The notes beneath the pieces are model-generated. The model was given only the letters and a program-made list of their open reading frames with translations. It was not told where the DNA came from and did no database searches. This document shows, in pieces, positions 2,745 through 31,446 of a stretch of 64,000 bases of DNA. How positions within the stretch are numbered: the stretch's first letter is position 1; each line of letters opens with the position of its first letter. Both the position numbers and the translations under genes were made by a program. Origin of the DNA: an uncultured Nitrospiraceae bacterium (lineage in GTDB: Bacteria; Nitrospirota; Thermodesulfovibrionia; Thermodesulfovibrionales; Dissulfurispiraceae); contig CAVSHF010000005.1 of the NCBI GenBank assembly GCA_963727805.1, positions 32,001 through 96,000 of the forward strand. Direction: 5' to 3'.

Positions 2745-3441
2745 CTACTTATAATCGCGAGTCCGCCCGTTAAGCTACAGATACGATGGTCGAGTAGGCC
2801 GGTGGAATCGCACCACCAGCCCCTCACAGATTCCGTACGTGAACCTCTCGATTCATACGGCTCGTGTCAATCATCAAGTTGAGTCTTTGCAGTCTCAACC
2901 ATACACATTGAGCGATAGTTCCTCCTGGTCACCCAGTTGACTGGTACTCTTTGTGGATTGACCCATCCCCTTCCCTCCACGGCTTATTATCACCGCTTCA
3001 TCGGTACTATTGGACGGTCCGACCCCTTCACCTGCATCGATACTTTCCCCCTTCGTTTGCACTTATAGGGTTTTCTCTTAGCATCAGATGAAGAGTTCCC
3101 GCGTTCCACACAGGAGCCTAGATCAGCTTCATGCCGCCTCTATGCCGGACGCCGTTCAGGCAGTAAACAGGTATCTCCTGAACTAATCCTGATGCAAAGT
3201 AAGAACATCAGTTTTGACGTCGTCCTTTTCCTTTCGACACCTCATCAGCGGTTCGCTTACGCTCATCTCTCTGATCCATCCCTGACACGATCTAGTCGTG
3301 CCTTTTCCTTTAACGCTCACCACCGGAGCCTTTCGACTACAGCAGCTTAAGGTGGGTTGAAGCCTGCTCCTGCAAGCCGGCTTCGAGGGGCCAACCCTCA
3401 TCTTCCTGTGCAGCCTCGTGGCGCACTTACGACCGGAAAGT
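2745..3441 (+). repeat. 59-bp array site A, split by an ORF-less group II intron
   Basis: CTACTTATAAT (2745-2755) + 33 nt | intron | TTACGACCGGAAAGT (3427-3441). Confidence 0.85.
2789..3426 (-). ncRNA. ORF-less group II intron (638 nt), copy 1
   Basis: 5' GTGCGCC, domain V GAGCCGTATGAATCGAGAGGTTCACGTACGG, 3' end CTACTCGAC; 5' half similar to the RT intron at 13111-14945; no ORF. Confidence 0.92.
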
Positions 3442-3503
3442 ATCTTGCTCAGTTCTCAAACCGAATCCTTTGCTGCCGAATGTCACAAGGTATAGCGACC
3501 TAG

Positions 3504-4091
3504 TCAGTTTGCGCCCGCTGGTTGGCCTTTCCTATCAATCCCCATGGAAGGGCTGCGATCATGCTTGCTTGCTCTCGCTCTATCAGCAATTGACCTGATT
3601 TCACCCAAAAAATCTTTCATTGCTATTTCAGTTTCGTTCTGAATACTCCCCATAATATAGCTGTTCGTTTTTTTAACAGCATCGTTGATAACTTTCAGTT
3701 CGCGCTGACCTTCCGGGGTTTTGTAATGCGCGATTGCAGCACGCATATCACTTTCTGGCAGCCCATCAACTAAGGATGCTGAATATATTCTTGCTGCCTC
3801 CGCCGAATTCCAGGAATTAGTAACTCTGTGACCAAACTCCTGCGCCGCTACTTTAAATTCTTTCAAGGCTGAGTCGGGTATATTCGGATTGGAGTTCTGA
3901 AGCTGTGCAATGATGCCATCCATTTGTCCCTCAACCATTTTGATTGTATCCTTGCGTACCGATTCTAGCATTGAATCAAATCCAAGAACCTGCATCAAAT
4001 CTTTTGCTAGTTCCGTTTGGTCTGCCGCTAATGCAATATTTGATGTCGTACCAATCAGAATAACAACCACAAACATAATAATTTTCTTCAT
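3504..4091 (-). CDS. Secreted DUF2059-like protein
   Basis: Signal peptide; 'DMRAAIAHYKTPEGQR' resembles the DUF2059 motif. Confidence 0.65.
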   Translation of the reverse strand: MKKIIMFVVVILIGTTSNIALAADQTELAKDLMQVLGFDSMLESVRKDTIKMVEGQMDGIIAQLQNSNPNIPDSALKEFKVAAQEFGHRVTNSWNSAEAARIYSASLVDGLPESDMRAAIAHYKTPEGQRELKVINDAVKKTNSYIMGSIQNETEIAMKDFLGEIRSIADRARASKHDRSPSMGIDRKGQPAGAN

Positions 4092-4108
4092 AATCATCTC
4101 CTTTTGTC

Positions 4109-4177
4109 TTGCCACTAAGAATCTCACTGGGAGGCGTGGGGAGTTTCACGCCGATCCAGTGAAGCGTGATGTTATAT
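4109..4177 (-). repeat. Degenerate integron attC-like site
   Basis: ATATAAC just after the lepB stop, palindromic core GCTTCACTGGATCGGCGTGAAA..CACGCCTCCCAGTGAG; R' GTT box degenerate. Confidence 0.6.
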
Positions 4178-4185
4178 CGGCTTTA

Positions 4186-5034
4186 TTATTGAACAGGCTT
4201 ACCAATCCTGTCCCAACGAACCTCGCGATTCACTTTATCCCATGACCAATACAAACTCATGACCTTGCCCTCAATTGTATCCTTTGGAACATAGCCCCAG
4301 AAGCGGCTATCGTAGCTCTGATCACGATTGTCGCCCATAACGAATAATTTTCCCGGCGGAATGGTAACTGGACCAAAATTGTCTCTTGGGTCTCGAAAAC
4401 TGCTGGAATCAGTATTGATCTTGTAAGGTTCTGATTGTTCTTTACCATTAATATAAAGTCTTTTGTCTCTGATCTCGACAATATCGCCTTCAACAGCAAT
4501 GAGTCTTTTGAGCCAAGCACGTGAGGGATCCTCAGGATAGGGGAATATGATGATGTCGCCACGCTTTGGTTCTGCAGTTTTATATATTAATTTGTTCACC
4601 AGAATATGATCGCCGAGTAGCAATGTCGGCATCATGGCACCGGAGGATATGTTGTATGCCCGAATCAAATTGGCTTTTACGCCAGCAGATACAAGCGTTG
4701 ATACCAAAAATGATAAAACAACAACGTAGCCAACATATACAAACCATCTGTTATATTTTGCTACTTCGTAGTTCTCTTTATGTTTTTTTGCGATTGATAC
4801 CGCGTCGACGACACAAAAGACGATAAAAGCTAGGCCGCCAACTAACGCGAAGACCAAGGAAGCAGGGTTGGGTACAATGATAAGCACTGAAACTGCAAAG
4901 ACAATCAATAAACATTGCTCAATACCGAATAATATCAGACCTCTTTTGGGGCTGCCCGAGTATAGGTGACCAAGACCCCTTGTCAGTAATGTTAGTAGTG
5001 CAGCGATCCATGGTCGCCTGGGCTTATTGGTCAC
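4186..5034 (-). CDS. lepB: Signal peptidase I with N-terminal membrane domain
   Basis: S.AMMPTL..GD, KRLIA..GD, GDNRDQSYDSRFWG. Confidence 0.92.
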   Translation of the reverse strand: MTNKPRRPWIAALLTLLTRGLGHLYSGSPKRGLILFGIEQCLLIVFAVSVLIIVPNPASLVFALVGGLAFIVFCVVDAVSIAKKHKENYEVAKYNRWFVYVGYVVVLSFLVSTLVSAGVKANLIRAYNISSGAMMPTLLLGDHILVNKLIYKTAEPKRGDIIIFPYPEDPSRAWLKRLIAVEGDIVEIRDKRLYINGKEQSEPYKINTDSSSFRDPRDNFGPVTIPPGKLFVMGDNRDQSYDSRFWGYVPKDTIEGKVMSLYWSWDKVNREVRWDRIGKPVQ

Positions 5035-5168
5035 AGTATGCCCCCCAATATTTGATAAATAACAATTATTAAGCCAACTTGGTATTTACTGCCAAAAGTA
5101 TATCACATTGCAACGGAGATTAGAACAAAATCCATTAAAAGTATTTGTCACAATTGCGTTCGTGTGTT

Positions 5169-5227
5169 CTACTTATCATTGCGATTGCGTCACCCACGCC
5201 GCGGACGCTATGTTTCAGCTGATAATT
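5169..5227 (+). repeat. 59-bp array site B
   Basis: CTACTTATCAT-N33-TTTCAGCTGATAATT; internal GCGTC/GACGC stem. Confidence 0.7.
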
Positions 5228-5344
5228 GTCAATATTTGAGCCGGAGCATCGCAAATCTTAATTCCTCGACGCCCCGGCTAAGGGGAAGGTCTTGCTGCGT
5301 TGATCTCCTATGTCAGAACTCTGGATGTTGTTTGTCTGCTCCGC

Positions 5345-5527
5345 TTATTTCCTCTTTAAGCCAGGCGCCCTTAGTGCCAGTCTCGGTCTGATGGTGGGAA
5401 CAACACGTTCAAACTGGCGGGGCCGATCTTCCTCTCGCATGTACCCTCTGGCAGTCTGGAATTCACCAGCCTCGGCAAAGGTAATAGCTAAAAACATATT
5501 TTCTAGATTCTTTCCAAATGTTTTCAT
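5345..5527 (-). CDS. Small conserved-type hypothetical protein (ITFAEAGE motif)
   Basis: RBS AAGGAG upstream; sigma54-like promoter upstream. Confidence 0.7.
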   Translation of the reverse strand: MKTFGKNLENMFLAITFAEAGEFQTARGYMREEDRPRQFERVVPTIRPRLALRAPGLKRK

Positions 5528-5574
5528 AATAATCTCCTTTGGTACTTACATTTTGATATCGTCGATATTTACAT

Positions 5575-9873: not shown

Positions 9874-9889
9874 CACTCCCCGTGGCTAG

Positions 9890-11572
9890 CAGGCTGTCCG
9901 ACAATTATCGAAATTAGAGACAAATGACGGATGCCTCGCCATCCTGAAAACATAACGGGGCTATCTGCTTTATACATAGTATCTCCAGCAAAAGCTTCCT
10001 TGGCGTATGGCAGTAGTTGCCCTCTTTCGGAGGCTTTCCTCTTCCCTTCAGGCATTCCCATATCTTTTTCAGATTTACTGCCGTACAGGCAAGGTTAAAT
10101 TCCGACCTTACCGAATTAATTCCTCTCGTCAGAAATGTTCGCAATCCTTTGTTCTCCTTGATATCGCCGATCACAGGTTCAACAATCTGTTGTCTAAGCT
10201 TATATATATATCTTGCTGCAGGCGTTTTCATTTTTTCAGTCATCGCATTGCAGTGAACTTCGTGAGGGAACACCTTCAGAGAGCGTATGCCGTCCTTCTG
10301 TTTGGTACACAGTCGCTGATGCTCACATCCCAAGCATCTCTGACCACGATAGACTCTCACCATCTTGTCCCTCTGTCTGTCAAAATGTTCGCCCAAGAAT
10401 GTTAGCGGGTGATCAGCAGGACAAATATACTCATCCCTTTGTTTATTGTATGTAAAGTTCTTCTTGTCGTATGGGTTGTTTGCCCGCGTCCCACTATTGT
10501 CAGGCATGTATGCATCTATCTTCCTGTCCGATAGAAATGCAATGTTCTCACCGCTAAAATATCCAGAATCAAAACTCCAAATAATACTATCAGCAATTCC
10601 GCCAAGATTCTCTGTGGTTTGTATAACCTGAGGTTGCAACTGGCTGACATCTGCAGCATTCTGCCCCACGTCACTAGCCAAAATGAACCCACCCTTATCC
10701 ACTGTCACCTGAGGATTATAAGAAAGCTCTATCCTGCCTTTCTTATTTTTCATAAAACGACTATCAGGATCTGTCGTGCTTACCTGCTTTAGCCCTTCCT
10801 CATTAACTTTGTCTTGAGCTCCTTGAAGACCTTCTCTGAGTCGACCTATAAAAACATGCCCTTCTTCTTTAGCCCTCTTAACATAGTACTGTGCAGCTTT
10901 CTGAACAAGTTTTTTGCCCTGCCGGGACAGTTGGTCGCTACCCCGTAGTTCACCGAACTGCCGATCCTCACTCTCATCAATCTCTGCCCACTCCTGAAGC
11001 TCACCATCGACAAAGCTTCTCAGAACCGCCAACTCCTCTTTTGTTAATACTCGCCTGTTTGATGCATTTGCCTTCACTTTGGTTCCATCTGTCGACAGAT
11101 GCGACAAATCCAACAATCCTTCCTCTTTGGCAAAACTAACTGTGTGCTTGAAGACTTCCTTTAGTAGATCAGGGTTGTTCTTTCTGAAATCGCTGATAGT
11201 CCTGAAGTCAGGAGTCAGCTTCTCCGCCAAATATATATACACCACGTTCTCTCTGGCATTGCGTGCCAGTCGACGAGATGAGCGCACCCTGTCCAGAACT
11301 CCCATGATCAGCAACTTCACCAGCATTTTTGGATGATATGCCGGATGTCCGGCACCTGAATAGCGGATATCGAAGCAACCATAATCCAGGGAGTCAACCA
11401 ATCCTTCAATGAGAAAACAAATATGATCTTCGGGTATCATATCTTCTAAACTCGGCGGCAGTAGCCAGGATTGCCCTCCATACGACTCAATGTATGCCAT
11501 CGGGTGTACTCCTTGATATCGTTCTTAAATATATTCTACCACCGGATAACTTGATAATTGTCGGACAGCCTG
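9890..11572 (-). mobile_element. IS1182-family IS, copy 2 (inverted relative to copy 1)
   Basis: Same IRs and length (1683 bp); duplication CTAG. Confidence 0.92.
9914..11500 (-). CDS. IS1182 transposase
   Basis: Protein identical to 857..2443. Confidence 0.95.
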   Translation of the reverse strand: MAYIESYGGQSWLLPPSLEDMIPEDHICFLIEGLVDSLDYGCFDIRYSGAGHPAYHPKMLVKLLIMGVLDRVRSSRRLARNARENVVYIYLAEKLTPDFRTISDFRKNNPDLLKEVFKHTVSFAKEEGLLDLSHLSTDGTKVKANASNRRVLTKEELAVLRSFVDGELQEWAEIDESEDRQFGELRGSDQLSRQGKKLVQKAAQYYVKRAKEEGHVFIGRLREGLQGAQDKVNEEGLKQVSTTDPDSRFMKNKKGRIELSYNPQVTVDKGGFILASDVGQNAADVSQLQPQVIQTTENLGGIADSIIWSFDSGYFSGENIAFLSDRKIDAYMPDNSGTRANNPYDKKNFTYNKQRDEYICPADHPLTFLGEHFDRQRDKMVRVYRGQRCLGCEHQRLCTKQKDGIRSLKVFPHEVHCNAMTEKMKTPAARYIYKLRQQIVEPVIGDIKENKGLRTFLTRGINSVRSEFNLACTAVNLKKIWECLKGRGKPPKEGNYCHTPRKLLLEILCIKQIAPLCFQDGEASVICL

Positions 11573-11795
11573 CTAGCCACGGGGCATCTATAACACAGCG
11601 GAAGACCGCTGTGTAGGTTCTGGACTACGCCAGAACCTCAGAGGATAAGGGGAACTTCCAGTCCCCCTTATAACCCTCCGGCAAGGATGCCATTCATCCC
11701 ACGCGCCAAGGCGCGGGGCATTCTGGCATGGCTTTGGTAATTGTAGACCGGACAAGCCCGGTATGGAAGTCGCGAACCGACACGAACGATGAGAG

Positions 11796-11863: not shown

Positions 11864-12021
11864 ACTCAGCGGACTATATTTCGGGTAACCGCCTTCAGTG
11901 TATTCAGGATACCAGCCGGCGATGATTCCTGTGAGCATCTGTTGCCGCAATGACAACACCTCAGCCCTCTCGCTGATTATGTTTATAACTGAAATAACTA
12001 TCGAAAGCAGATTCTCAGTAA

Positions 12022-12080
12022 CTACTCATAATCTCGAGTCCGCTCGATATGGTACAGATACTAGGTTACGACCGGTAATT
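12022..12080 (+). repeat. 59-bp array site D
   Basis: CTACTCATAAT-N33-TTACGACCGGTAATT. Confidence 0.85.
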
Positions 12081-12178
12081 GTTACCCAGCTTAGATCATG
12101 GCGTACTTGCACTTTAGGCGTAAATCTACTTCTTCCGTTAATGATGATGCCTTTGGCCCGTCCCTGCTTTCAGCCCTA

Positions 12179-12475
12179 TCATATGAAGAAGTAGCCAATA
12201 TAACTCACCAATAAAACTAAGGGAGGCACCGCGATGGCTAAACGCGCAGTCAGAGAATTCAGTTGTTTACTCATCACTGCTGTTATGATATATATTGTCC
12301 ATGTCGCTACTCCACACCAAAACATGGCACTGGCTAAATGAGTCCAGAGTTGCCAAGACTGAAGGTCGCCAATGCCTGCTTTATCCATCGCGGTATCCGC
12401 TCTATATATGGCATATATAAAGCAACCTATGCTGATGAGCTGAGTTGCCCACAGAATGAGAAAGACCTTCTTCAT
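12179..12475 (-). CDS. Small membrane protein (single-gene unit between sites D and E)
   Basis: 98 aa, 3 hydrophobic segments. Confidence 0.65.
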   Translation of the reverse strand: MKKVFLILWATQLISIGCFIYAIYRADTAMDKAGIGDLQSWQLWTHLASAMFWCGVATWTIYIITAVMSKQLNSLTARLAIAVPPLVLLVSYIGYFFI

Positions 12476-12550
12476 TTATCTATCACCATAACGCTAAATA
12501 TGTGACATTATCTATTGTCACCTTTCTGCAAATATAGCACAAATTTAGTA

Positions 12551-12609
12551 CTGCTTATTATCTCGAGTCCGCTCGTTATGGTAAAGAGACTAGGTTACGA
12601 TCGGTAATT
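12551..12609 (+). repeat. 59-bp array site E
   Basis: CTGCTTATTAT-N33-TTACGATCGGTAATT; spacer near-identical to site D. Confidence 0.85.
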
Positions 12610-13110
12610 GTTAAGCCTTCCCACCCAAGTGACCAGATTATTGCCAAGGTCGTCCCGTCGGACTCCTTTCTTCTTTGATAAATCCGCACGGCACTGCTGG
12701 TTCATTTATTTAGTTGCTGTTGCTTGACTCTGCCTGTTTCGTGATAGAATTGAGAAACCATAGAATAATCTTAAAGGAGACTATTAGATCAAGGAGTTGA
12801 TAAATGGAGAGAAATATTCAACGCGAATTTATGGCAGCGCCGTGGTTTGTCGGTCTTTGGGCAGTTTGGGGAGCTGCATGTTTACTCACTGTATTTCTAA
12901 AATTGCTAATGGGTAAATGGATAATTGCAACATGCTATTTAATAATGGCTTCCTCAATGGCTTTTCTTGTTTATAGATTTTTAAATAACCCAATAATTAA
13001 ATTCCGCATTGACTCAATTGAAATTCTGAACGGGCCTATGTTCTCTGTGAGACATATCTCGAACTCTGATATTTCGCGTCTCGAAAATAAGAGCAATTCT
13101 AAATATAGGA

Positions 13111-14945
13111 GTCGAGTGGCGCGAGGGAATCTCACCCTCACGCTCTCCCAGATCCGGACGTGACAGTCTCCCGTCATCCGGCTCCTATCATCCAGCCTAA
13201 GGTTGAAACCCAGCAATCCAATGGGCGAACAGAGAAGGCTGTCGACAGGCTATCTGTCTCAACCATATTGTCGCCCTCCGGTTATTGGATTTAAACCATT
13301 TGTATTTCCTTTGCATGCATCGGACTAGAATACTATTGAAAGTTTTGAAGATCGGGTACAGTGCAGATTTGTAGTACTGACCATAGTAGTTGATCCAACC
13401 CCGAAGGACTGGATTACAGAAACGTGAAAGCTCTTCAAGGCTCTTGTCACTGCGCCGGTGAATGAACCAACTCCTCATGACTCCACGAATTGCACTGGAC
13501 GCCTTATTACTCACAGCTGGGCTGAAGTTCACAAAGTAATTTCCAGACCGACTCTTTGATCTCCGGGGTCGAAAAGTGTACCCGAGAAAATCAAAGCTCT
13601 CATTCAGGTAACTCTCTTGTCTCAATCCATCCTTACAATAGACAATCTTTGTCTTTTCAGGATGAAGCTCCAGCTTGCACTGCGTAAGCCGCCGTCCAAT
13701 CTCCGTTCTGAGCCATTTGGCTTGCTTCTCACTTTTACAGTGCACAATAGCGTCGTCGGCGTAACGCTCGAAAGGAATGGTTGGAAAGTTTCGTTTCATC
13801 CACTCATCAAACGCATAGTGGAGGAAAAGATTAGCGAGCAGTGGACTTGCGACACCCCCTTGGGGAGTGCCCTTGTCACGGCTCACTCGCGTTCCGTCTT
13901 TCAATTGGGCAGGGGCCTTAAGCCATCGCTCAATGTATAACAGAATCCACTTGCATTCAGTATGCTTTCTAACAGCACGCATAACGAGGTCGTGATCCAG
14001 ATTATCAAAGAACCCTTTGATGTCTAAGTCCACAACCCAGTCATAACGCCAGCATCTCTGACGTGCTACCCCTACCGCTTCAATCGCTGACTTTCCCGGC
14101 CTGTATCCATAGGAATCCTGATGAAAATGAGGCTCCACTTCAGGCTCCAGATACATCTTAACCACCATCTGCGCAATCCGATCTCCTACCGTAGGAATAC
14201 CCAGAGGCCTTATACCTCCGTTATCCTTCGGTATTTCCACGGTGCGCACCGGTGGCGGAAAGTAGCTCCCCGACGACATCCGATTCCAGAGCTTGTAGAG
14301 ATTATCCTTAAGATTCCTCTCAAACTCCTCGATCGATTCCCCATCCACGCCAGCAGCACCACCATTTGCCCTTACCCGTCTAAAGGCTTCCAATACTACT
14401 TGCTTAGAAATACTAAACGGCTTTGCCTTACTCAATAGCTCCTCCCAACAAATGGTTGACTATTCAATAAAGCTGGACGATGTAGCCCCTTTGCTCCGGT
14501 CCCATTACGAACCTTCATCGCTACTGCTGGCTACTCCGCCTCTGTGCTCCGCATCGGTACTCTCATTCTCATGGGGCCACCACTTGAACTTCTCCCTTAG
14601 CATCGGAGCGACAGTTTCCCACGTTCCACACAAGAGCCTGGATCAGCTTCATGCCGCCTTTATGCCGGACGCCGTTCAGGCAGTAAACAGGTATCTCCTG
14701 AACTAATCCTGATGTAAAATAAGATACATCAGTTTTGACGTCGTCCTTTACCTTTCGACACCTCATCAGCGGTTCGCTTGTGCTCATCTCTCTGATCCTT
14801 ACCTGACACGATCTTGTCGTGCCTTTTCCTTAACGCTCACCACACTGGCTCTTTACCAGTGCAGCTTAAGGTGGTTTGAAGCCTGCTCCTGTAAACCGGC
14901 TTCGAGGGGCCAGCCCTCATCTTCTTGTGCAGCCTCGTGGCGCAC
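13111..14945 (-). mobile_element. Group II intron with RT/maturase ORF (bacterial class D-like)
   Basis: 5' GTGCGCC, domain V GAGCCGGATGACGGGAGACTGTCACGTCCGGATC, 3' CACTCGAC. Confidence 0.93.
13197..14435 (-). CDS. ltrA: Group II intron reverse transcriptase/maturase (no En domain)
   Basis: LWNRMSSGSY, RPLGIP, GTPQGG, YADD, FLGY, GWINYY. Confidence 0.96.
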   Translation of the reverse strand: MSKAKPFSISKQVVLEAFRRVRANGGAAGVDGESIEEFERNLKDNLYKLWNRMSSGSYFPPPVRTVEIPKDNGGIRPLGIPTVGDRIAQMVVKMYLEPEVEPHFHQDSYGYRPGKSAIEAVGVARQRCWRYDWVVDLDIKGFFDNLDHDLVMRAVRKHTECKWILLYIERWLKAPAQLKDGTRVSRDKGTPQGGVASPLLANLFLHYAFDEWMKRNFPTIPFERYADDAIVHCKSEKQAKWLRTEIGRRLTQCKLELHPEKTKIVYCKDGLRQESYLNESFDFLGYTFRPRRSKSRSGNYFVNFSPAVSNKASSAIRGVMRSWFIHRRSDKSLEELSRFCNPVLRGWINYYGQYYKSALYPIFKTFNSILVRCMQRKYKWFKSNNRRATIWLRQIACRQPSLFAHWIAGFQP

Positions 14946-15223: not shown

Positions 15224-15241
15224 TAGACTGACGCTCTTCTC

Positions 15242-18551: not shown

Positions 18552-18552
18552 T

Positions 18553-20144: not shown

Positions 20145-20590
20145 AGACTGAAGCTCTTCTCCTGAAAATATAGCCGACACTTGGATCGCCTATCCGCAGC
20201 AGTTGGCAGCAGTTGAAGGTCAGCACGAATGCGTGAGGGCTGAGGGCCATCTACTTGACCCGTTTCCAGACGCTGTAGTTGGTTCCGCCAATGGTTGTGG
20301 TGGGGTTAGTTCTCTTCAGTTCGTCTCCGATGACGGTAATGATCCGCGTCTGATCTTTACCATCCCAGTTGGGGAACGTACACCCGTCGATGTGTAGAAT
20401 TACCGTGTGCTCCTTCTCGCTCGCCACCGCGTACGTGCCGAAAAAGACAAAGGACCCTTGGACAACAGCTTGGTTCTCCTCGACGGTTCCTTTCATGCGG
20501 TTGTTGGCAGCGAATTGCGGGAGGTTCGCTCGCATGATAATGTTTGCGAAGCGGCCATCGGGCGTAAAGATCATGGAGCCTTTCGGATTA

Positions 20591-21695: not shown

Positions 21696-22185
21696 TAGGA
21701 CCGAACTGATCGATCTTCTTGCCGTTCTGCTCGTTATACATTGAGACGAGAAGCCAGGTTCCCTGGATCTGCTGTGCCAAACTGGGACCCTTGTCCTGGG
21801 CCCAGACATCAGACGCTCTAGACAGCGCCCCACTAGCAAGAACGGCAACAACCAACAAGACCTTTATCGCTTCCTTAATAGACCAGTTCATTGTGTTTCT
21901 CCTTCACTAAGTTCAGCACAGTCCATTACATTACCTTCCTGTTGCATAAAATATTCTTTGATTGCCTGTCCGCAGCAGTTGAAAGCCAGCAAGAATGTGT
22001 GAGGCATCTTAGTTATACTGTCTTTGTTCCATCACACAATTATACTCCTGGATGAGCGTATCATTTCAAGAACGTTACAACATAGCGAGCTTTCTTCCGG
22101 TAACATTTATCCATCTTCTCTGCTAAAATGGTGAGGAGTACAGACGTTTTTTCTAATATACAGTGACCAGTATAAAAGAGGAGGA

Positions 22186-22464
22186 ATGATGGCTAACTAT
22201 AAAATCAAATGTGAAGCTATCGACATCCGCGGTGAATCCGGAATTTGCCCAGGTTCAGCCAAATGCAAAAAGGGGGAAACTTATATCCTGACAGCTCGAA
22301 CACCTGAAACCATAGGAATGTGCGGGCGAGCATTTGCTGCCATACATCCAATGGCATTTGCCATGCGGTGGTCGGAGAAGATGGAGTGGGAGAAGGGTGA
22401 CCACGTTAATGTCATTTGTCCAGACGGTTTCGTGACATACAGACTCTCGAGAATAAAAGAATAG
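22186..22464 (+). CDS. TIGR04076-like small Cys protein
   Basis: G.C......G, MC..AF..I.P, CPDG.V.YRL. Confidence 0.65.
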   Translation: MMANYKIKCEAIDIRGESGICPGSAKCKKGETYILTARTPETIGMCGRAFAAIHPMAFAMRWSEKMEWEKGDHVNVICPDGFVTYRLSRIKE

Positions 22465-22500
22465 GCTGACAATTTGATGGCAAGAAATCGCTGCAAATAA

Positions 22501-22559
22501 CTACTTATAATCGCGAATCTGCCCACCACGTCACAGATGCTTTATTACAACCGGAAGTC
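22501..22559 (+). repeat. 59-bp array site H
   Basis: CTACTTATAAT-N33-TTACAACCGGAAGTC; ATCTG/CAGAT stem. Confidence 0.85.
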
Positions 22560-22639
22560 CTCAGTGATTCAGTTCTCGGAGAGGCAAGGGCAGTGTTGCC
22601 TATCCAATTCAGTGCGGCGCCACATACGGGTTAGCTGGT

Positions 22640-23290
22640 CTATTGCCAAGAGTTTACGGCTGCTTCAGTCTGCTTCAGCATATCTTTCATCAGCTCACGC
22701 AGGCTATCAGCCATAGTCACCTTCATTGCTTGTTCGATGAATGTCACCTGCGATCCAGTATACTCCTTATCCGCGTCTGTGACTCCCTTCTCGAACTTCT
22801 GGTCAAGAAGGACTTTACCTTTCTGTTCGAACGTTACATGTAAGGAACTGATTCCCGCAACACGGATAATCAGAAAGCCGACTGACTGGGAACACAATGC
22901 ATGAATTTCCGTCTTCATAATGACATCATCGGGTCCTGTGGGTGTGGTCGAGACCTCCGAGAATAGGTTCGAGGCCTGAAGCTCTTTTGCCAATCTCTGC
23001 TGGATTATCTGTGAGGCATCCGTCCCCCACAAAGGATCAGTTGAACAGCCCATCCATTTCGTACCAGCCACATGCTCACTATAGTGCAGGGAACGCTGAT
23101 CAACTGGGGTTGATATCAAAAGGACATGAGGATAACTTGTCTTGGCTGTATAACCGGTTGGAGTCTCCGGAAACGATAGGGAGGCGCCAGGGACACGCAA
23201 CGCAGAACGGTTACACCCGCAACCGAAAAATACGATGACTATCAAAAAAGCAGAAAAAAAAGAACCAGCGGATTTTGCCTTTGGCGTCAT
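22640..23290 (-). CDS. Putative lipoprotein
   Basis: Hydrophobic leader ending in FFGC; RBS AGGAG. Confidence 0.7.
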   Translation of the reverse strand: MTPKAKSAGSFFSAFLIVIVFFGCGCNRSALRVPGASLSFPETPTGYTAKTSYPHVLLISTPVDQRSLHYSEHVAGTKWMGCSTDPLWGTDASQIIQQRLAKELQASNLFSEVSTTPTGPDDVIMKTEIHALCSQSVGFLIIRVAGISSLHVTFEQKGKVLLDQKFEKGVTDADKEYTGSQVTFIEQAMKVTMADSLRELMKDMLKQTEAAVNSWQ

Positions 23291-23374
23291 ATTCTCTCCT
23301 TTCTTGATTCTACGGCTTTCCCCAGGTGGTTCAGTTACTATTTTGCTTAACCGTGGGAAATATTATCAATCAGC

Positions 23375-23443
23375 CTACTTATAACTACTTAAAGTCATCG
23401 CCGCAGCGATACGGTTCAAGGCTCAAGATTTCTTCCCGTAATC
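23375..23443 (+). repeat. 59-bp array site I, with a tandemly duplicated left arm
   Basis: CTACTTATAA|CTACTTAAAGT-N33-TTTCTTCCCGTAATC. Confidence 0.8.
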
Positions 23444-23486
23444 AAGAGGTATGCCTTTCCCAGTGAGAATGCGGTATACACCGACT

Positions 23487-25002
23487 CCCATTTAGAGGAC
23501 ACATGTCAAGTAACAAAACATCTGCGTTCGAAGTTTTTTTGACTTCTCTCATTGTTATGAGCTCCGATGATCATTACCATTGCCGTTTTTTCTTTGAGAT
23601 TCGGCTCCAGTATTAACTGTGCCAGACTCCCATCAGGATCAAAGCCACACCCAGAGATCACTCCCCGAAGAGGGCCCCTTCCGCTTCATAGCGGTCCAGA
23701 AAACCTTCGGATCCGTGCCGGGTCCATTTCGAATTTGCTATTCTTATGGTTTTGATTCACCAGTCCTATAGGGCTCCCGGCCCAGCCAGTAAGGATACCG
23801 GTAACTCTTATGTTGCTGGGTGAGACAGTGTTCCAATCTAACCGTTGGTTTAGTTCCAGTCGGTGTACAGGTTAGCTGCTTCACCCAGTTCTTCATGCAA
23901 ATGCTTTATCAGTCATAAACGGAACTCCATCCCTCATAATGTAATACGCCGCCCTCGCCAGTTTATGTGACAGTGCACTGTGCGCAATCGGTGCGTTTGT
24001 CCTCCTCAGCTTCCGGTCATAATAAGCCCTTGCTTCAGAGTCAAAGCGCCGTGATAGCTCTCCTGCCTCGGCAAATGCCCAGGACAGATACTTGTTGCCG
24101 TTCTTCCTGTTATTTGTCCCTTTCTTTTTGTCATTGCTGAATCTAGCGGCGGGGACCTTCCGGCAGTACGACACATAGTTGCCAACATCTGCAAAGCGAT
24201 CAATAGGACCCGTCTCCATCATAATCGTCAACGCCAGGACCCTTCCAACTCCCGGCATAGTTAAAAGAAGATTATATGGCCGCTTGAGATCTATCTTTTT
24301 TTCTACGGCCACTTCTATTGCTGTGATCTGCCTTCTCAGTGAGTCAATCGCATCTTTACTTACCTTACCGACAAGGGATAGATCATCGTCACCTGCCAAT
24401 AGTGGTGTCACCCGATCCTTCTTCAATGCCTTTATATCATTTGTCTTCATCTTTGCACCTATGTTCCTGGCAACGATGTTTTGAAGGCTCAAGATGAGTG
24501 ATGTCCTCAACCTCACCAGATGCCCGCGCTTCCTCAGAAGATCTCTCAGAGGTCTTTGCTCCTTTGGATAAATGAATCCCTCAGGCAGTATCTTTAGTCT
24601 CAGCATCTCGGCAAGCCAGAACGCATCATCTTCGTCATCTCCATGCTTGAGTCCACAATACTGCTGCACTCTGGAGGGATTCGCCAAGTGGACCCGATAG
24701 CCTTCCCCCATCAGAAGATCTACCAACCAGTACCAATTGTATGTCGATTCCACAACAATCCCTTCAACATCCTTCTTCAACGGTCTGAGCGTCTCTAAAA
24801 TCAGACTCGGATCGTTCCGGAGTTTCTTCTTCCATAGCCTTCGCCCATCCTCATCGATGATCCCCACATATGAATTGTTTGAATGAAGATCAAAACCTGT
24901 GTACAGTCTCATACAGCACCTGCTTAAGGTTAAGATTGTTTCTCTTACCTCAAGCATACCGCTAACCGATATGCTCGGGGAGGTCCCCTCTATATGATTA
25001 TC
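23487..25002 (-). mobile_element. IS1111-type IS110 element
   Basis: Imperfect subterminal IRs (ATTTAGAGGACAC / GTCCCCTCTATAT) + GATTATC end; related to 37816-39326. Confidence 0.8.
23893..24912 (-). CDS. IS110-family transposase
   Basis: GFDLH, VESTYNWYW, D..DAF.LA, PGVG, NRKNGN. Confidence 0.93.
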   Translation of the reverse strand: MRLYTGFDLHSNNSYVGIIDEDGRRLWKKKLRNDPSLILETLRPLKKDVEGIVVESTYNWYWLVDLLMGEGYRVHLANPSRVQQYCGLKHGDDEDDAFWLAEMLRLKILPEGFIYPKEQRPLRDLLRKRGHLVRLRTSLILSLQNIVARNIGAKMKTNDIKALKKDRVTPLLAGDDDLSLVGKVSKDAIDSLRRQITAIEVAVEKKIDLKRPYNLLLTMPGVGRVLALTIMMETGPIDRFADVGNYVSYCRKVPAARFSNDKKKGTNNRKNGNKYLSWAFAEAGELSRRFDSEARAYYDRKLRRTNAPIAHSALSHKLARAAYYIMRDGVPFMTDKAFA

Positions 25003-25253
25003 TACTCTACACTGCGGATATTTTGCCACAGTAACAGTTACCGTTTGTAACCCTCGCACCAAGACCACAATTCAAAATGCGGTGTTCATGTCGTAAATCT
25101 CACCGAAGTAGATCAGCAGAGCCAGGTTAACGCCCCCACTTCAAGCAGTCAATAAGCACAATAAACCTGTGATTGCTAACGGTAGTAGGACATTTCCTCG
25201 GGGTCACCGTGGGAATGTTTCACTGTCAATCGCCATTTCTGCTACTATCTACT

Positions 25254-26162
25254 ATGTCACATGCAAACAGTTCCTTAAGAGCGATTATCTATGCCTTGGC
25301 GGCAAATTTAGGAATTGCGGCGGCGAAAGGGCTTGCCGCATGGTATACGGGGTCAAGTGCCATGCTCGCGGAAGCCATTCATTCAGCAGCTGACTCTGCC
25401 AATGAGATTCTCTTGCTGCTTGGCCTCAGAGAGGCGCGGCGGCCGGTCTCCGATGAGCATCCACTGGGGCATGGAAAGGCGATCTATTTCTGGTCAGTCA
25501 TTGTCGCGATCATGCTTTTTAGCATGGGCGGTATCTTCGCAGTGTCCGAAGGCCTGCACAAGCTGCACTATCCAAAGATGCCTCAGTCGCCGTGGGTCGC
25601 GATGGTGGTGCTGGTTGTTTCGATGCTGCTGGAGATCAGTTCTCTGCGTGGGGCCCTTGCAGAGGTTAGGAAGGTACAGGGCAAGCTTTCTTTAACAAAA
25701 TGGTTCAGGGTGAGCAGGCAAAGCGAGCTTATTGTTGTGGTTGGCGAAGACATTGCGGCTCTCGTGGGACTCTCCCTTGCTATGGTAGCTGTTCTCACGA
25801 CGATTTTGACAGCAAACCCACTCTTTGACGCGCTGGGCACTATCGCGATCGGTCTGGTCCTCGTGCTTGTCGCCGTTGCCGTCGGCATAGAAGTGAAGAG
25901 TCTACTGATCGGTGAGAGTGCAGACCCGGAAATGAAGGCCTCTCTACTGGATTTCCTTTCAGGTCGGCCGGAGGTCGACCATGTCTACAATCTCATTACT
26001 CTCCAACTTGGCAGCGAACTCATGATCGCAGTTAAGGTGAGAATGCATGAAGACGCAAGTGCCGCCAGACTGATTGCAGATATCAACAACGTTGAGGCTG
26101 CAATAAAGGAGAGATTTCCCATGGTGCGCTGGATTTTTTTTGAACCTGATGTAACCGATTAG
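25254..26162 (+). CDS. Cation diffusion facilitator transporter
   Basis: GSSAMLAE.IHS.AD, HPLGHGK, ED.AAL, FDA, SLLIGE. Confidence 0.92.
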   Translation: MSHANSSLRAIIYALAANLGIAAAKGLAAWYTGSSAMLAEAIHSAADSANEILLLLGLREARRPVSDEHPLGHGKAIYFWSVIVAIMLFSMGGIFAVSEGLHKLHYPKMPQSPWVAMVVLVVSMLLEISSLRGALAEVRKVQGKLSLTKWFRVSRQSELIVVVGEDIAALVGLSLAMVAVLTTILTANPLFDALGTIAIGLVLVLVAVAVGIEVKSLLIGESADPEMKASLLDFLSGRPEVDHVYNLITLQLGSELMIAVKVRMHEDASAARLIADINNVEAAIKERFPMVRWIFFEPDVTD

Positions 26163-26862
26163 GCCTGCTCAATATCCTAAACTCTCCCCCGGTGAGGCCG
26201 TAATAGTGTCTTGCCTCATGAAGTATGCTTGTGCATATCTTCTTATGCAATTTCTCTTCTTGCCGCCCCCCCACTGCCCGCGAAGATGAACCCAAATGTC
26301 GAACCGCAAACTTGATAAGTAGTAGACGAAGTCTTGCGGGATTAAACCTCGCTGAGACCTGTAGCTTTCACCAACAAGTTTCGATTTTCAAATTTCTTGC
26401 GGTTTGATGATTACCCTTCGTACCCTCCCTCACCGCCGATAATTTGACGAACGGGGGTGCATGTCGTAACCATCGCGGAGGCCATATCACGGTTGCCGAT
26501 GTGGTTCTAATAAAATTTTCAGATTTCCGAGTACCACACATTTGATGATTTGCGGAATCAATCATCGTATCGAATGCTGCGACGAAGTTTACAAGAAAAA
26601 CCTATCGTTTTTCCGAAATGTAGAACTCGATAAAGAAAGCTGTTTGCATGGGAGATATTCGTGTCCATAAAAGAAGTGTTTTATGAACAGTTCCCTTACG
26701 AAAAATATCTTCTTGATTAGGCATTAAAAAAGTAAATCGATATTCTATAGATATGTAAGTAATGCCTTCAATGGCTATTGGCGGTTACAGAACTTTCAAC
26801 TAAAGTTCTGTAACTGATTAATAACTGGTGTGATTACACATAGACAATGAAAGGAGATCAAT

Positions 26863-27582
26863 ATGGCTGGAATACCTGATTCGACTGTAAAGACAATAGT
26901 TCTCGTCCACGGCGGCTTTGTGGATGGCTCCGGTTGAGAAGCAGTCTATAAAATCCTCAGGAAAGACGGCTACACCGTCAGCATAGTTCAGAATCCAACG
27001 ATATCACTCGCGGATGATGTTGCCGTAACCAAGCGCGTTCTAGCGACGCATAGCGGTCCCGTGATTCTCGTTGGCCACTCCTACGGAGGAGCGGTAATCA
27101 CAGAAGCCGGCAACGATCCAAAGGTCGCTGGGCTTGTTTATATCACCGCCTTTGCTTTGGATAACGGTGAGTCGGTATCGTCGCTTATTAAGGACCCGCC
27201 GCCGGGCGCTCCTGTGCCGCCGATACTGCCACCGCAGGACGGCTATCTGTTCCTCGACAAGGAGAAGTTCCCTTCCTCATTCGCTGCCGACGTAGATGCG
27301 GAAAAGGCCGCGTTCATGGCTGACTCTCAAGTTCCATGGAGCGTCGAAGCACTCAGTGGCACGATCAGTGAGGCGGCTTGGAGAACCAAGCCGAGTTGGT
27401 ATTTGGTCGCCACCGAAGACAAGATGATCCCACCGCCGGCCCAGCGTTTTATGTCTAAGCGCGCGGGTTCGACGGTCGTCGAGGTTCCGGGCAGCCACGC
27501 GATCTATATGTCGCAACCAAACGCCGTTGCAATGCTGATTGAAAGTGCCTCTAAAGAAGCGAACAAAAAAGCTGGTTCCTAG
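26863..27582 (+). pseudogene. Alpha/beta hydrolase with a premature TGA
   Basis: VLVHGGFVDGSG*EAV (TGA at 26935-26937 where Trp is expected); GHSYGG, GSH in the same frame. Confidence 0.85.
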
Positions 27583-27870
27583 TATTTAGCAAGTTGATGC
27601 ATGGATTACAAATGCAGTGGAAATTAACCACTTAGAATTGAAGTTCAACGCCTACCAACGTGGAGTTATAATCTCCTCGCAATCAAGAGCGGCACCCTTT
27701 TCTGGAAAATGTGGGCTCCACCGACGAGTCTTGAATTTTACTTTCACCAGGCAGAATGATTTTCAGTTGTACTGTAGCTCACCGACAGAAAATTGACGTT
27801 ACGTATAGCATGTCGAAATCATCGATAGTAAATAATCGCCCACCATAGAGACTTCTACTCCTACACATCA

Positions 27871-29292
27871 AATATGGTATAACCAGAGTATGGACGGTTG
27901 TTAACCGTTCATAAGGGGCAGGAGGACGTGGTTTCCTACAGGGTCAAGAATCCTTTAATAAGTCAGTCCCCTGTCTCCCAAAGCCATGATAAATTGATAG
28001 GGCTACGAGCTCTTGTAAAGATGGAGATATGGTTGGGAGGCATTCCTGCCTAAGGTCCTATGCGGGAGGTGGTTGGAAATGAGCAAAGCATTCGTTGGCA
28101 TCGATGTGTCAAAAGAGCACTCGACTGCCCAAAGCATCGACAGTGACGAAAAGAAGCTTTTTTATTTAAGGTTCTCAATGGACTCAGCGGGGTTCGCAGA
28201 GCTTCGGACTGCTATTAAAGGATGCGGGGTGAACCCGGAGGATATTGTAGTGGCGATGGAGTCCACCGGCTGTTATCATATCAATCTCTTTTCCTTTCTA
28301 TGTGCGGAGGGACTTCGTTGTGCGGTAGTAAATCCGCTTCTGATATCCAAATTTGTTCAGGGATCATTGAGAAAGACCAAGACAGATAAGAAGGATGCGA
28401 TGACCATAGCGCAGTTTCTTCTGAACAATGAGAAGAAGCTGTGCGTGGTAACGTCATCCCAAGATGCGCAGGATCTGAGGGATCTGGCCAGGGAACGAGA
28501 GTCTCAGTCATGGATGATTGCATCACTTAAGAATGACCTCAAACGGCTGCTGCAGAGCACCTTCCCCGAGCTTGAGACACTCCGCAAGAATATTTACACT
28601 GAGACGATGCTGAACTTTGTTCGACAGTATCCATCGGCCAGATTAATCCGGGAGGCAAAGAGGAAAGATATCGACAAAGCACTCATCTGCCCCGGGGAGA
28701 AGCGCAAAAGAGTCCAGATTAGCGCCGACGATCTTATTGAGGCGGCAAAGCGTTCGGTGGGCTCAGCTGCTACAGCGAAGGAGCTTATCGTCTCTGAGAA
28801 GGCAACCACGATCCTGTATCTTCAGGAAAAGTGTGAGAAGATTACCGAGGCATTGGTGGATGCGTGTGAGGCAACACGGATCGAAGATCTTGAGATAATG
28901 AAGACGCTCGACGGGGTGAAAAACATCCTTGGCAGCAGCTTTCTAGCGGAGATGGGAGAGTTGTCCAACTTTAAATCATATAAGAGCTTGATAGCATACA
29001 TGGGGTTCGATCCATCGACTCATCAATCGGGGAAGCATGTGGGGCCAAGCAAAATATCCAAACGAGGGAATCGTCATATGAGGCGCATCACCCATATAAT
29101 GACACTCGGTTCAATAAAATCTGACAATATATTCAGAGAATATTATCTCAGAAGGATAGCCGAAGGATTGCCTAAGATGAAGGCATTAATGGCGACTTCT
29201 CACAAGCTAATAAGAGTGATCTTCTCTATGCTTACACATAGGATGCCGTTTAAAAAGGAGGTGGCTGCTGTATAGTTGACTTATTATCAACA
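27871..29292 (+). mobile_element. IS110-family element with a ~200-bp left non-coding end
   Basis: Boundaries deduced from comparison with site P; CA core at both junctions. Confidence 0.8.
28079..29275 (+). CDS. IS110-family transposase
   Basis: VGIDVSK, MESTG.Y, KTDKKDA, G.DP...QSG, ISKRGN. Confidence 0.95.
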   Translation: MSKAFVGIDVSKEHSTAQSIDSDEKKLFYLRFSMDSAGFAELRTAIKGCGVNPEDIVVAMESTGCYHINLFSFLCAEGLRCAVVNPLLISKFVQGSLRKTKTDKKDAMTIAQFLLNNEKKLCVVTSSQDAQDLRDLARERESQSWMIASLKNDLKRLLQSTFPELETLRKNIYTETMLNFVRQYPSARLIREAKRKDIDKALICPGEKRKRVQISADDLIEAAKRSVGSAATAKELIVSEKATTILYLQEKCEKITEALVDACEATRIEDLEIMKTLDGVKNILGSSFLAEMGELSNFKSYKSLIAYMGFDPSTHQSGKHVGPSKISKRGNRHMRRITHIMTLGSIKSDNIFREYYLRRIAEGLPKMKALMATSHKLIRVIFSMLTHRMPFKKEVAAV

Positions 29293-29444
29293 CCGCAGGG
29301 ATATTGCTTATTAATCAAGGTTTCTTTCGATAATCAAGACAATTACTGTCTGCGTTATTGGATTGATTTCGGGATTTTATGGTATGTGTAACCGATATCC
29401 CGAAATCGGAAAAGCTTCTTGAGATAAGATTCAGCTCCTCACGC

Positions 29445-29774
29445 TTATCGACTTACTTTGGCGGCAACAAGACGATTCAAGCTTACTCCAGTTTCAGCAG
29501 ATTCGATAGCAAGCAATCTGTGTGTTTCGGGTGTAACGCGAACCACAAATTTTCCACTGTAGTGCCGATTTGCGATCGGTTCTGGAATAGGCTCTCCAGT
29601 CTGTTTCATATCATTAACCGCCTCGGCGACAACTTTGCGGATGCCTTTCAGGGCAGCTTCGGGCGTTTCTGCTAACCAACTTAAGCTTGGAAATTCGGCA
29701 CAAAGTCCGACATACTCCTCGTCGTCTGTCGACCAAGTCACCCTATATGTATAATGATCATTCTTCAATTCCAT
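29445..29774 (-). CDS. hicB: HicB-family antitoxin
   Basis: YTYRVTWS..D.EYVGLCAEFPSLSW, YSGKF.VR, GVSLN. Confidence 0.9.
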   Translation of the reverse strand: MELKNDHYTYRVTWSTDDEEYVGLCAEFPSLSWLAETPEAALKGIRKVVAEAVNDMKQTGEPIPEPIANRHYSGKFVVRVTPETHRLLAIESAETGVSLNRLVAAKVSR

Positions 29775-30018
29775 AATTCACCTCCAAGATCTCAATGGCT
29801 TTAATCACCTGTTTTACCTGATAGCTCTTAGCTTTCCCTTTAGCATTTTGAATGTTTATCCGCGGATCTCCCTGCCAAGGCGTTCTATATATTCTATGAC
29901 TGCTTCCTTTTTGCCTAGCAGCGCCAAAGTAGTGGTCACAGACGGTGCATAAGTCAGCGAATCTGACATTGCCAGGATTATTCTTCATCTGTGAAACCAT
30001 TTCAGCAATGTTTGGCAT
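29758..30018 (-). CDS. hicA: HicA-family toxin
   Basis: NP.NVRF.DL, GSSH.IY.TPW.GDPRINIQ, KAK.YQVKQ; overlaps hicB. Confidence 0.88.
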   Translation of the reverse strand: MPNIAEMVSQMKNNPGNVRFADLCTVCDHYFGAARQKGSSHRIYRTPWQGDPRINIQNAKGKAKSYQVKQVIKAIEILEVNYGIEE

Positions 30019-30024
30019 GGTTTA

Positions 30025-30054
30025 ATTATAGTATCAATAATAGTACTATGTCAA
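30025..30054 (-). promoter_or_regulatory. sigma70 promoter of hicAB with an overlapping palindromic operator
   Basis: TTGACA-N18-TATAAT on the - strand; ATAGTACTAT palindrome inside. Confidence 0.7.
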
Positions 30055-30187
30055 TGGCTGTCAATATAAATATCAACATTGCACTTGAAAATCTAAGGTA
30101 TGACGAATCAGCATGATAATCCGACGGCCATTTATTTATTGCGGACGGGCGGATGGATAAACAATGGATGTGCCCAGTTCTCAGTAA

Positions 30188-30244
30188 CTACTTAAAATCA
30201 ATACCTGAGGGCTTCCTGAATGTACTTGTGAGTACGTGGAAATC
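30188..30244 (+). repeat. Array site K (2 bp short)
   Basis: CTACTTAAAAT-N31-GAGTACGTGGAAATC. Confidence 0.6.
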
Positions 30245-30249
30245 ATCGG

Positions 30250-30310
30250 CGGTTCAGTTCGCCCCGAGGCGTGGCAATTTTACACCGATCCACGAAGCGC
30301 TTCGTTATGG
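30250..30310 (-). repeat. Degenerate attC-like site
   Basis: CCATAAC after the stop codon; same family as 4109-4177. Confidence 0.55.
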
Positions 30311-30314
30311 AGCC

Positions 30315-30614
30315 TTATTCTTTCTCATCCTCTGGATACCAAGTAAACCCTGGCTCAACTTTTCCGTTTAACCCGTCAAAACTCTTCAGTTCGACAATAT
30401 CTTCAACATAAAACAGCGGCGGATCGTCTTCTTTATTATGAAGTTGGGTGTTAATGTCCTCTCTTCTTCTTATAGTCTCTATCGCCTTTAATGCGGCGTC
30501 ATCAGGATTAGTCGCCTCAACCTGACATGATGTATAGAAACCATGTCTGGCATTCCCATTGCCAAGGTTTATGATGAAGTTATGACCATTTATCAATACG
30601 CGATATTTATTCAT
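30315..30614 (-). CDS. Hypothetical protein bounded by attC-like sites
   Basis: KYRVLING.NF...GFY....VEA; cassette-like placement. Confidence 0.65.
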   Translation of the reverse strand: MNKYRVLINGHNFIINLGNGNARHGFYTSCQVEATNPDDAALKAIETIRRREDINTQLHNKEDDPPLFYVEDIVELKSFDGLNGKVEPGFTWYPEDEKE

Positions 30615-30617
30615 ATT

Positions 30618-30685
30618 GTTAGGCATAAAGCTCAACGGGAGGCGTGTGAAGTTTCACGCCGATCCCGCGCAGCGCCTTGTTATGT
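30618..30685 (-). repeat. Degenerate attC-like site
   Basis: ACATAAC AAGGCGCTGCGCGGGATCGGCGTGAAA...CACGCCTCCCGTTGAGCTT. Confidence 0.6.
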
Positions 30686-30749
30686 TTCATTTCTTTTAAT
30701 CGTACACGTCCCTTTGTCATCTTTCTGAGACTATAACACAAAATTACTT

Positions 30750-31446
30750 CTACTTATAATCTCCAATGCGGGGAAACTGCTCATTTTGTAAGGGTCGAGT
30801 AGGCCGGTGGAATCGCACCACCAGCCCCTCACAGATTCCGTACGTGAACCTCTCGATTCATACGGCTCGTGTCAATCATCAAGTTGAGTCTTTGCAGTCT
30901 CAACCATACACATTGAGCGATAGTTCCTCCTGGTCACCCAGTTGACTGGTACTCTTTGTGGATTGACCCATCCCCTTCCCTCCACGGCTTATTATCACCG
31001 CTTCATCGGTACTATTGGACGGTCCGACCCCTTCACCTGCATCGATACTTTCCCCCTTCGTTTGCACTTATAGGGTTTTCTCTTAGCATCAGATGAAGAG
31101 TTCCCGCGTTCCACACAGGAGCCTAGATCAGCTTCATGCCGCCTCTATGCCGGACGCCGTTCAGGCAGTAAACAGGTATCTCCTGAACTAATCCTGATGC
31201 AAAGTAAGAACATCAGTTTTGACGTCGTCCTTTTCCTTTCGACACCTCATCAGCGGTTCGCTTACGCTCATCTCTCTGATCCATCCCTGACACGATCTAG
31301 TCGTGCCTTTTCCTTTAACGCTCACCACCGGAGCCTTTCGACTACAGCAGCTTAAGGTGGGTTGAAGCCTGCTCCTGCAAGCCGGCTTCGAGGGGCCAAC
31401 CCTCATCTTCCTGTGCAGCCTCGTGGCGCACTTACGACCGGAAATC
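30750..31446 (+). repeat. 59-bp array site L, split by an ORF-less group II intron
   Basis: CTACTTATAAT-N33 | intron | TTACGACCGGAAATC. Confidence 0.85.
30794..31431 (-). ncRNA. ORF-less group II intron (638 nt), copy 2
   Basis: Appears identical to 2789-3426 by eye; flanks differ. Confidence 0.92.

Follow-up and report, generated by a model that had tools for sequence, protein, structure and literature searches.

The 64,000-nt stretch analysed here (hereafter the window; positions 32,001 to 96,000 of contig CAVSHF010000005.1, assembly GCA_963727805.1, from an uncultured Nitrospiraceae bacterium) carries two identical copies of a 638-nt group II intron that lacks an open reading frame (ORF) and has moved recently. 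By sequence comparison the intron is a mosaic, with a domain I like that of a reverse transcriptase (RT)-encoding intron in the same window (hereafter intron L) and domains II–VI like those of another ORF-less lineage. We consider it likely, from its predicted pairing and ancestry, that it retrohomes with the protein of intron L acting in trans, bound at a domain IVa-like hairpin, into cores of a genomic repeat that pair and have a +1 C, in either orientation, and that intron L takes the cores with a +1 T. By analogy with described systems it is a variant of the known hitch-hiking ORF-less introns, TeI3-like with a repeated target of the RmInt2 type.

Exact ends and an empty allele

The two window copies are 100% identical over 638 nt, and their flanks agree over just 1 nt on the left and 13 nt on the right, which rules out a segmental duplication, as the initial annotation of this DNA had argued. 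Both match the Rfam models RF00029 (domains V/VI; 45.4 bits, gathering threshold 40) and RF01999 (domain I; 109.8 bits) on the minus strand. The RNA begins with GUGCG and ends with CUCGAC, fitting the group II pattern GUGYG...AY, and domains V/VI retain the catalytic triad and a bulged branch A. The longest stop-free stretches are 80 aa in the sense and 93 aa in the antisense direction; a tblastn search of the neighbouring RT against the intron gave no match, and no ORF remnant was detected.

Both copies are inserted at G|TTACGACCGGAAA, 31 nt past a TACTTATAATC arm and behind linkers that differ; the insertion point and the differing spacers are as first described. A contig from DNA run X2 (one of four runs; depth 2.8) joins position 2788 to 3427, omitting exactly 638 nt, with 0 and 1 differences in its flanks. 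The intron ends are therefore exact and copy 1 has an empty allele. Because this allele and the unoccupied sites carry the boundary G, that G belongs to the exon, and the same two observations exclude a 639-nt intron taking in the shared C. No empty allele of copy 2 or of intron L was seen in the four runs over 11950–31900, where cover is patchy. Copy 1 is itself flanked by an inverted pair of 1.7-kb insertion sequences (IS) with DUF772 and DDE domains (770–2479 and 9878–11587), 7.4 kb apart.

Ten copies, mostly in one repeat

The genome (3.89 Mb in 5 contigs, rated 100% complete) holds 10 full copies of the intron, 8 of them outside the window. Nine are identical and the remaining one has a single change, with different flanks at all ten; together with the empty allele, this bears out the recent movement already proposed in the initial annotation. 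None of the ten interrupts a long ORF, and the ORF-less intron outnumbers its RT-encoding parent by 10 copies to 2.

Four copies, namely the two in the window and those at C3:793354 and C3:2247406, interrupt the B core of a two-arm site; two lie in core D read backwards (C3:611977 and C3:886552), one in another repeat fragment (C5:400663) and three outside the repeat mask (C3:743310, C3:1319834 and C3:2273525). Whether most copies sit outside the sites, which would have spoken against these as targets, depends on how the site is drawn: the two-arm site as originally defined holds 4 of 10, and the wider repeat, whose mask covers 0.42% of the genome, holds 7 of 10. At that wider scale the site family does serve as a repeated target.

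A repeat built of near-palindromic cores

A two-arm matrix trained on 14 unoccupied window sites found 43 genomic matches of at least 20 bits on both strands, all 14 among them, and none in a shuffled 2.46-Mb strand. Both arms are variants of one 17-bp near-palindrome with a 6-5-6 layout, and core matches recur at spacings of 46, 47, 92–93 and 139 bp. The two-arm site makes up the front part of a degenerate repeat that extends further and has four cores (A to D); distinct core types follow a set order in it and are joined by linkers of nearly fixed length (29–30 bp). A profile trained without the intron-bearing copies found 101 partial copies over 12,228 bp. The site pattern, searched with a 31-bp spacer, is present in 8 of 389 other genomes of the class and in 3 of 7 in the genus. 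In a comparison of the repeat with miniature inverted-repeat transposable elements, a few copies showed related terminal cores, but the ends are ragged and inspection revealed no target duplications.

The unoccupied TTACGA sites reported earlier, which we assume to be those at 12023, 12552 and 33431, are real. The claim that the sites form a genuine entity stands in so far as a conserved, repeated motif exists; the intron does not support their being recombination sites, since it is predicted to read one 17-bp core as linear sequence. Its insertions mark conserved cores of the repeat and do not reveal what the repeat does, and nothing shows that the intron recognises the array structure. The data suggest that the repeat is an abundant, harmless landing pad.

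Predicted recognition of a linear target by exon-binding sites

Modelling of the exon-binding sites (EBS) against the 5' exons, which the initial annotation had called for, gave a consistent picture. The predicted EBS1 pairs with positions –1 to –7 and EBS2 with –9 to –13, and the 3' exon begins with C at all ten targets. The candidate EBS3 is G in the 638-nt intron and A in intron L, whose 3' exons begin with T; among 18 hand-picked introns (one uncalled), 16 of 17 show a Watson-Crick pair between the candidate and the +1 base, and the other shows a G-T wobble. This is the layout of subgroup IIB recognition, in which the 5' exon supplies the intron-binding sites IBS1 and IBS2 and the +1 position supplies IBS3. 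The pairing score against EBS1/2/3 is at least 10.5 of 13 at 9 of 10 targets, and EBS2 pairs over 4–5 of 5 positions at 9 of 10.

Among 49 two-core sites, 6 reach 10.5 with a +1 C, at a threshold chosen after the data were seen, and 4 of these are occupied, as against 0 of the other 43. In the three empty TTACGA window sites IBS2 reads TTACC where TTTCC is expected, a mismatch that would account for their remaining empty. Of 690 genomic targets that pair equally well, EBS pairing by itself places just 24 in the repeat (23 of 176 non-coding), so that the 7 of 10 observed there exceeds it (P 5e-5). When GA at –15/–14, present at 7 of 10 targets, is added and targets are confined to non-coding DNA, 14 of 24 lie in the repeat (P 0.34); a linear motif together with gene avoidance therefore suffices for the preference. 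GA next to IBS2 is common to the 638-nt intron and intron L. The intron occupies seven of the 24 repeat targets compatible with it, so its spread is unsaturated.

The closest relatives elsewhere also insert in core-like 17-mers (20.7, 11.8, 8.6, 7.0 and 6.0 bits; background for 5 bits or more, 0.1%), with no partner core beside them at any of 19 callable loci. That survey had both ends for 19 of 85 loci, and a separate one gave 5' ends at 22 of 81; several distant loci are probably mis-called, and the closest relatives were used. Core-like targets with no partner core suggest that the preference predates the repeat or serves other repeats. Related class D introns L058, L071, L074, L099 and L111 insert just downstream of a short intron 5'-end copy.

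An RT-encoding sister and a mosaic RNA

Intron L encodes a 412-aa RT/maturase in which the domains RVT_1 and GIIM were found and no endonuclease domain. In a tree of 14 rows this RT groups at 100/99 with the protein of RmInt1 (57% identical; row L139, which we take to be RmInt1 from its 5' exon and N-terminus), and this grouping makes intron L class D (IIB3) by sequence. A C-terminal motif ascribed to class D also matches the RT and RmInt1, but it is absent from the text of PMC3552965 and was given no weight. The 638-nt intron, having no protein, is placed as class D-type through its RNA, with 91% identity in domain I, and the earlier description of it as non-autonomous and class D-like holds. 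The RT is intact in both copies of intron L and is the sole class D enzyme among six RT matches in the genome; four further RT introns belong to other classes. The closest relatives of the intron L enzyme are from Nitrospirota bins. Introns B and C, likewise ORF-less and class D-type, are more diverged.

Identity of the 638-nt intron to intron L falls from 91% in domain I to 62% in domains II–III and 71% in domains V–VI, whereas intron L and its closest relative L049 share 91%, 95% and 99% over the same parts. In domain I trees the 638-nt intron groups with intron L (98/96); in trees of domains II–III plus V–VI its partners are ORF-less intron C and two introns from related genomes that are also ORF-less (100/100), and an approximately unbiased (AU) test on these domains, with L074 and L130 left out for their truncated domain I, rejects a clade of the 638-nt intron and intron L (p-AU 1.7e-5). 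Tracts like intron L span nt 1–85 and about 105–320, separated by a short tip, at 86–103, that belongs to the other type. Positions common to the 638-nt intron and intron L and absent in L049 cluster at nt 205–254, around EBS1. We infer from this pattern that the guide region was converted from the lineage of intron L into the 638-nt intron. A decayed ORF-less relative in congener G003 (L002), 80% identical and with no repeat match at its flanks, has the same mixed ancestry.

A candidate route of mobilisation and the points against it

A domain IVa-like hairpin is known from other introns as the binding site of the intron protein. In the route that we favour, the 638-nt intron would be transcribed (a promoter scan gave chance level) and spliced with the sister RT/maturase bound at its retained hairpin of this kind. 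The ribonucleoprotein would then reverse-splice where EBS1, EBS2 and EBS3 pair, with the distal GA likely read by the protein, and, given the lack of an endonuclease domain, the replication fork would provide the primer for the complementary DNA, as it does for RmInt1. Recombination or gene conversion would have put the sister's guide region into an ORF-less backbone, leaving one repeat as the target of both introns, presumably split by EBS3 into G-type cores for the 638-nt intron and A-type cores for intron L, and selection against insertions in genes would leave mainly those in the repeat.

Several observations weigh against this route. The helper would have to act on domains II–VI that are just 62–71% like its own, and domain I taken alone does not reject a grouping with the ORF-less relatives (p-AU 0.22). 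Of the two copies of intron L, one falls inside the repeat mask and the other does not. In both window copies IBS1 pairs more weakly than at the other eight targets (5 of 7 positions), the target at C3:743310 scores just 9.0, and the core type of copy 2 is unusual for its linker, being the only such case among 8 TTACGA cores; local conversion may have been involved in copy 2. The GA was picked from occupied sites and is part of the core, so that a linear and a repeat-context reading are not fully separable. RNA run X5 yielded two intron-internal contigs and no splice joint, and these could derive from DNA. We dropped a lagging-strand bias from the argument: the G-rich strand carries 8 of 10 copies, but 15 of 24 repeat targets are likewise on it, and the bias of the copies is no greater than that of the available targets.

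Alternative readings

We regard it as doubtful that an undescribed site-specific recombination system uses the cores for crossover or binding and that the intron clade has specialised on these cores, in the manner of group IIC-attC introns, through a required site context (a neighbouring core, a bound protein or an exposed single strand). The attC consensus is RYYYAAC...GTTRRRY. Core spacing is indeed fixed at 46–47 bp amid variable linkers, and the 18 window sites (16 with two cores, plus partial copies) share one orientation in the gaps between accessory genes and IS elements, yet the sites form no hairpin (mean z about –0.4, at –0.35 and –0.40, with 2 of 43 below –2), none of the 43 carries attC boxes, and no integron integrase in the genome exceeds the cut-off (TIGR02249, best 86.5 bits against 265). 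The attC analogy of the initial annotation therefore fails mechanistically, and a group IIC-attC intron as such is ruled out by the class D RT and by the EBS2 pairing. Sites recur in other genomes of the class, but no recombinase tracking them was found among the genomes compared. The 324-aa tyrosine recombinase at C5:27486–28460 (L148) is ruled out as the repeat's enzyme: its family occurs in 43 of 390 genomes and was not found in the site-bearing congeners G004 and G005 (both fragmented), a distribution that does not follow the sites. This gene is located between repeat copies, and a 96%-identical gene of G003 also stands beside a site. Unrelated elements (IS110, intron B and an RT intron of 2244 nt from another class) do share the repeat; on the other side stand the three intron copies outside it, the lack of partner cores beside the relatives' 17-mers, and the absence of any clean module excision at cores in four runs of patchy cover.

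A broader proposal, in which we place little confidence, would make the 46–47 bp periodic repeat the site family of an undescribed gene-shuffling system on which class D introns (intron L, the ORF-less mosaic and intron B), the other-class intron and IS110 converged, the guide module having been captured from intron L by domain I exchange. If true, it would give a class D counterpart of IIC-attC introns and natural guide swapping as a retargeting route. All 8 copies of the IS110 element at 27855–29281 end at CT within core-like sequence, and the pile-up of these elements and the introns is as compatible with an abundant, safe landing pad as with a recombination site.

It is unlikely that the helper has since been lost, or had domains II–VI of the intron's own type, with the domain I likeness to intron L reflecting later conversion and not partnership. 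The RT-encoding relative L051 does have a domain II of the 638-nt intron's type, and some intron proteins of Thermosynechococcus elongatus are highly specific for their own intron (PMC2882425). Against this, the copies are identical and polymorphic between samples, pointing to recent movement, no other class D RT exists in the assembly, and both introns share the GA next to IBS2.

It is very improbable that the intron spread chiefly as a passenger of recombination or gene conversion among repeat copies at the DNA level, without independent retrohoming of the window copies: these do share 13 nt of 5' exon that pairs poorly with EBS1, the TTACGAC core of copy 2 follows a linker type otherwise seen with other cores, and one X1 contig joins site and intron in a different upstream context, but the ten 5' exons differ yet retain their EBS-complementary positions, the three copies outside the repeat include one that pairs fully when wobbles are counted, the left flank is shared over 1 nt only and the empty allele of copy 1 is precise. 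Conversion could apply to copy 2 alone.

Relation to known systems

For the TeI3 introns of T. elongatus, ORF-less and multi-copy, trans mobilisation has been shown (Mohr, Ghanem and Lambowitz 2010, PMC2882425). Like TeI3, the 638-nt intron has no ORF, shows recent multi-copy spread, outnumbers a related RT intron in the same genome and sits at EBS-complementary sites, and it is likely mobilised in trans. In contrast to TeI3, which belongs to CL/IIB1, arose by simple ORF deletion with remnants and gained new targets by EBS point changes (PMC2882425), it is class D-type with no detectable ORF remnant, and its guide region was apparently taken from another lineage.

A second parallel comes from the Sinorhizobium meliloti introns RmInt1 and RmInt2 (class D/IIB3): the sister RT belongs to their clade, and the IBS1-spacer-IBS2-IBS3 layout with G-C and A-U variants of EBS3 recurs (PMC4615759, PMC5894124). 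Their proteins read distal 5'-exon positions in the zone of the –15/–14 GA, and RmInt2 uses both inverted repeats of ISRm17 as a repeated, two-way target (PMC4615759, PMC5894124). Each of these two introns carries an RT gene of its own and inserts into IS elements (PMC4615759, PMC5894124), unlike the natural ORF-less mosaic, whose targets are palindromic cores, in either orientation, of a repeat that is not an IS.

With IIC-attC introns such as S.ma.I2 the intron shares a fixed insertion position in a repeated site between accessory genes that is also used by the IS110/IS1111 family (PMC3001079). Those introns target integron attC sites (PMC3001079), and class C introns lack EBS2 (PMC3522654), whereas here EBS2 pairs and the sites are unfolded. 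The target repeat alone recalls the neisserial intergenic mosaic element arrays (dRS3 plus RS), which have short palindromic cores with a variable centre and linker families, are insertion sites for mobile elements and have a hypothesised recombinase role (PMC1797815). Compared by layout only, dRS3 is 6-8-6 with linkers of 50–150 bp (PMC1797815) and the present cores are 6-5-6 with linkers of 29–30 bp.

Gene conversion between intron copies has been reported (PMC3522654). Bacterial ORF-less introns are called rare in a review (PMC4424553); here, by contrast, they outnumber the RT parent. We found no paper on retargeting by guide-domain swap in bacterial ORF-less introns, and no direct description of such an ORF-less class D intron or of natural domain I exchange in a literature search that mostly did not cover subscription papers. 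The system offers a natural test set for whether a class D RT can mobilise RNA whose domains II–VI differ this much from its own, whether introns retarget by guide-domain swap instead of point changes, and why several unrelated elements accumulate in one repeat.

Table 1. Coordinates of the introns, their predicted elements, targets and associated features (window numbering unless a contig is given)
Feature	Position	Strand	Description and basis
ORF-less group II intron, copy 1	2789..3426	-	638 nt, GUGCG...CUCGAC; Rfam matches, empty allele
ORF-less group II intron, copy 2	30794..31431	-	638 nt; same sequence as copy 1
Domains V and VI	2789..2865	-	Catalytic triad, bulged branch A; RF00029, fold
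Predicted EBS1, UUACUUU	3196..3202; copy 2 31201-31207	-	Domain I hairpin loop; local fold, pairing to 10 targets
Predicted EBS2, GGAAA	3227..3231; copy 2 31232-31236	-	Fold, target pairing
Predicted EBS3, G	3140; copy 2 31145	-	Pairs with +1 C of 3' exon; covariation
Domain IVa-like hairpin with AGGAGG	2915..2941	-	Retained; putative helper-protein binding site; alignment, fold
RT-encoding class D intron (L)	13111..14945	-	1835 nt; second copy C3:1126260; likely helper, domain I donor lineage
RT/maturase ORF	13197..14435	-	412 aa, YADD; TIGR04416 437 bits
ORF-less class D-type intron B	C3:689720-690343		In core D, position equivalent to 638-nt intron, matching EBS1
ORF-less class D-type intron C	C3:2011710-2012346		Outside repeat
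Target 1	2740..3441	+	Core A 2740-2756; after a 30-bp linker, core B, which the intron divides (2787-2788 / 3427-3441)
Target 2, longer repeat copy	30745..31584	+	Core A 30745-30761, split core B 30792-30793 / 31432-31446
Target 2, further cores	Core C 31476-31492; core D 31522-31538	+	
Unoccupied TTACGA two-core site	12017..12080 (site at 12023)	+	IBS2 mismatch, pairing score 9.5
Unoccupied TTACGA two-core site	12546..12609 (site at 12552)	+	Pairing score 10
Unoccupied TTACGA two-core site	33425..33488 (site at 33431)	+	Pairing score 9.5
IS110 element	27855..29281	+	Ends at CT inside a core of the repeat; second element type using cores

Other elements in and around the repeat

A second, different IS110 element at window 18650–20142 also ends at CT in or next to a repeat core. 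The 2244-nt RT intron of another class (C3:6831–9074) lies in the repeat 6 nt past core C, in the orientation opposite to the class D introns, and its frame ends early. An IS91-like element of 2549 bp, which has a tyrosine recombinase of its own, occurs at C5:23901–26449 and in near-identical form at seven other places; in at least three of its copies the same end directly adjoins a repeat core.

A second short repeat family lies on the minus strand of the window at 4120–4175, 30628–30683, 35604–35659 and about 30255–30330; it folds as a hairpin, has an attC-like start on that strand and adjoins small genes. Three tRNA 3'-end-like copies (39703–39750, 40856–40903 and 41451–41498, with the stretch at about 39890–40130) stand beside a broken tyrosine integrase with no whole tRNA at these copies, and are likely relics of island attachment sites. 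At 32072–32557, three 162-nt tandem repeats lie within a gene with a YtkA-like domain.

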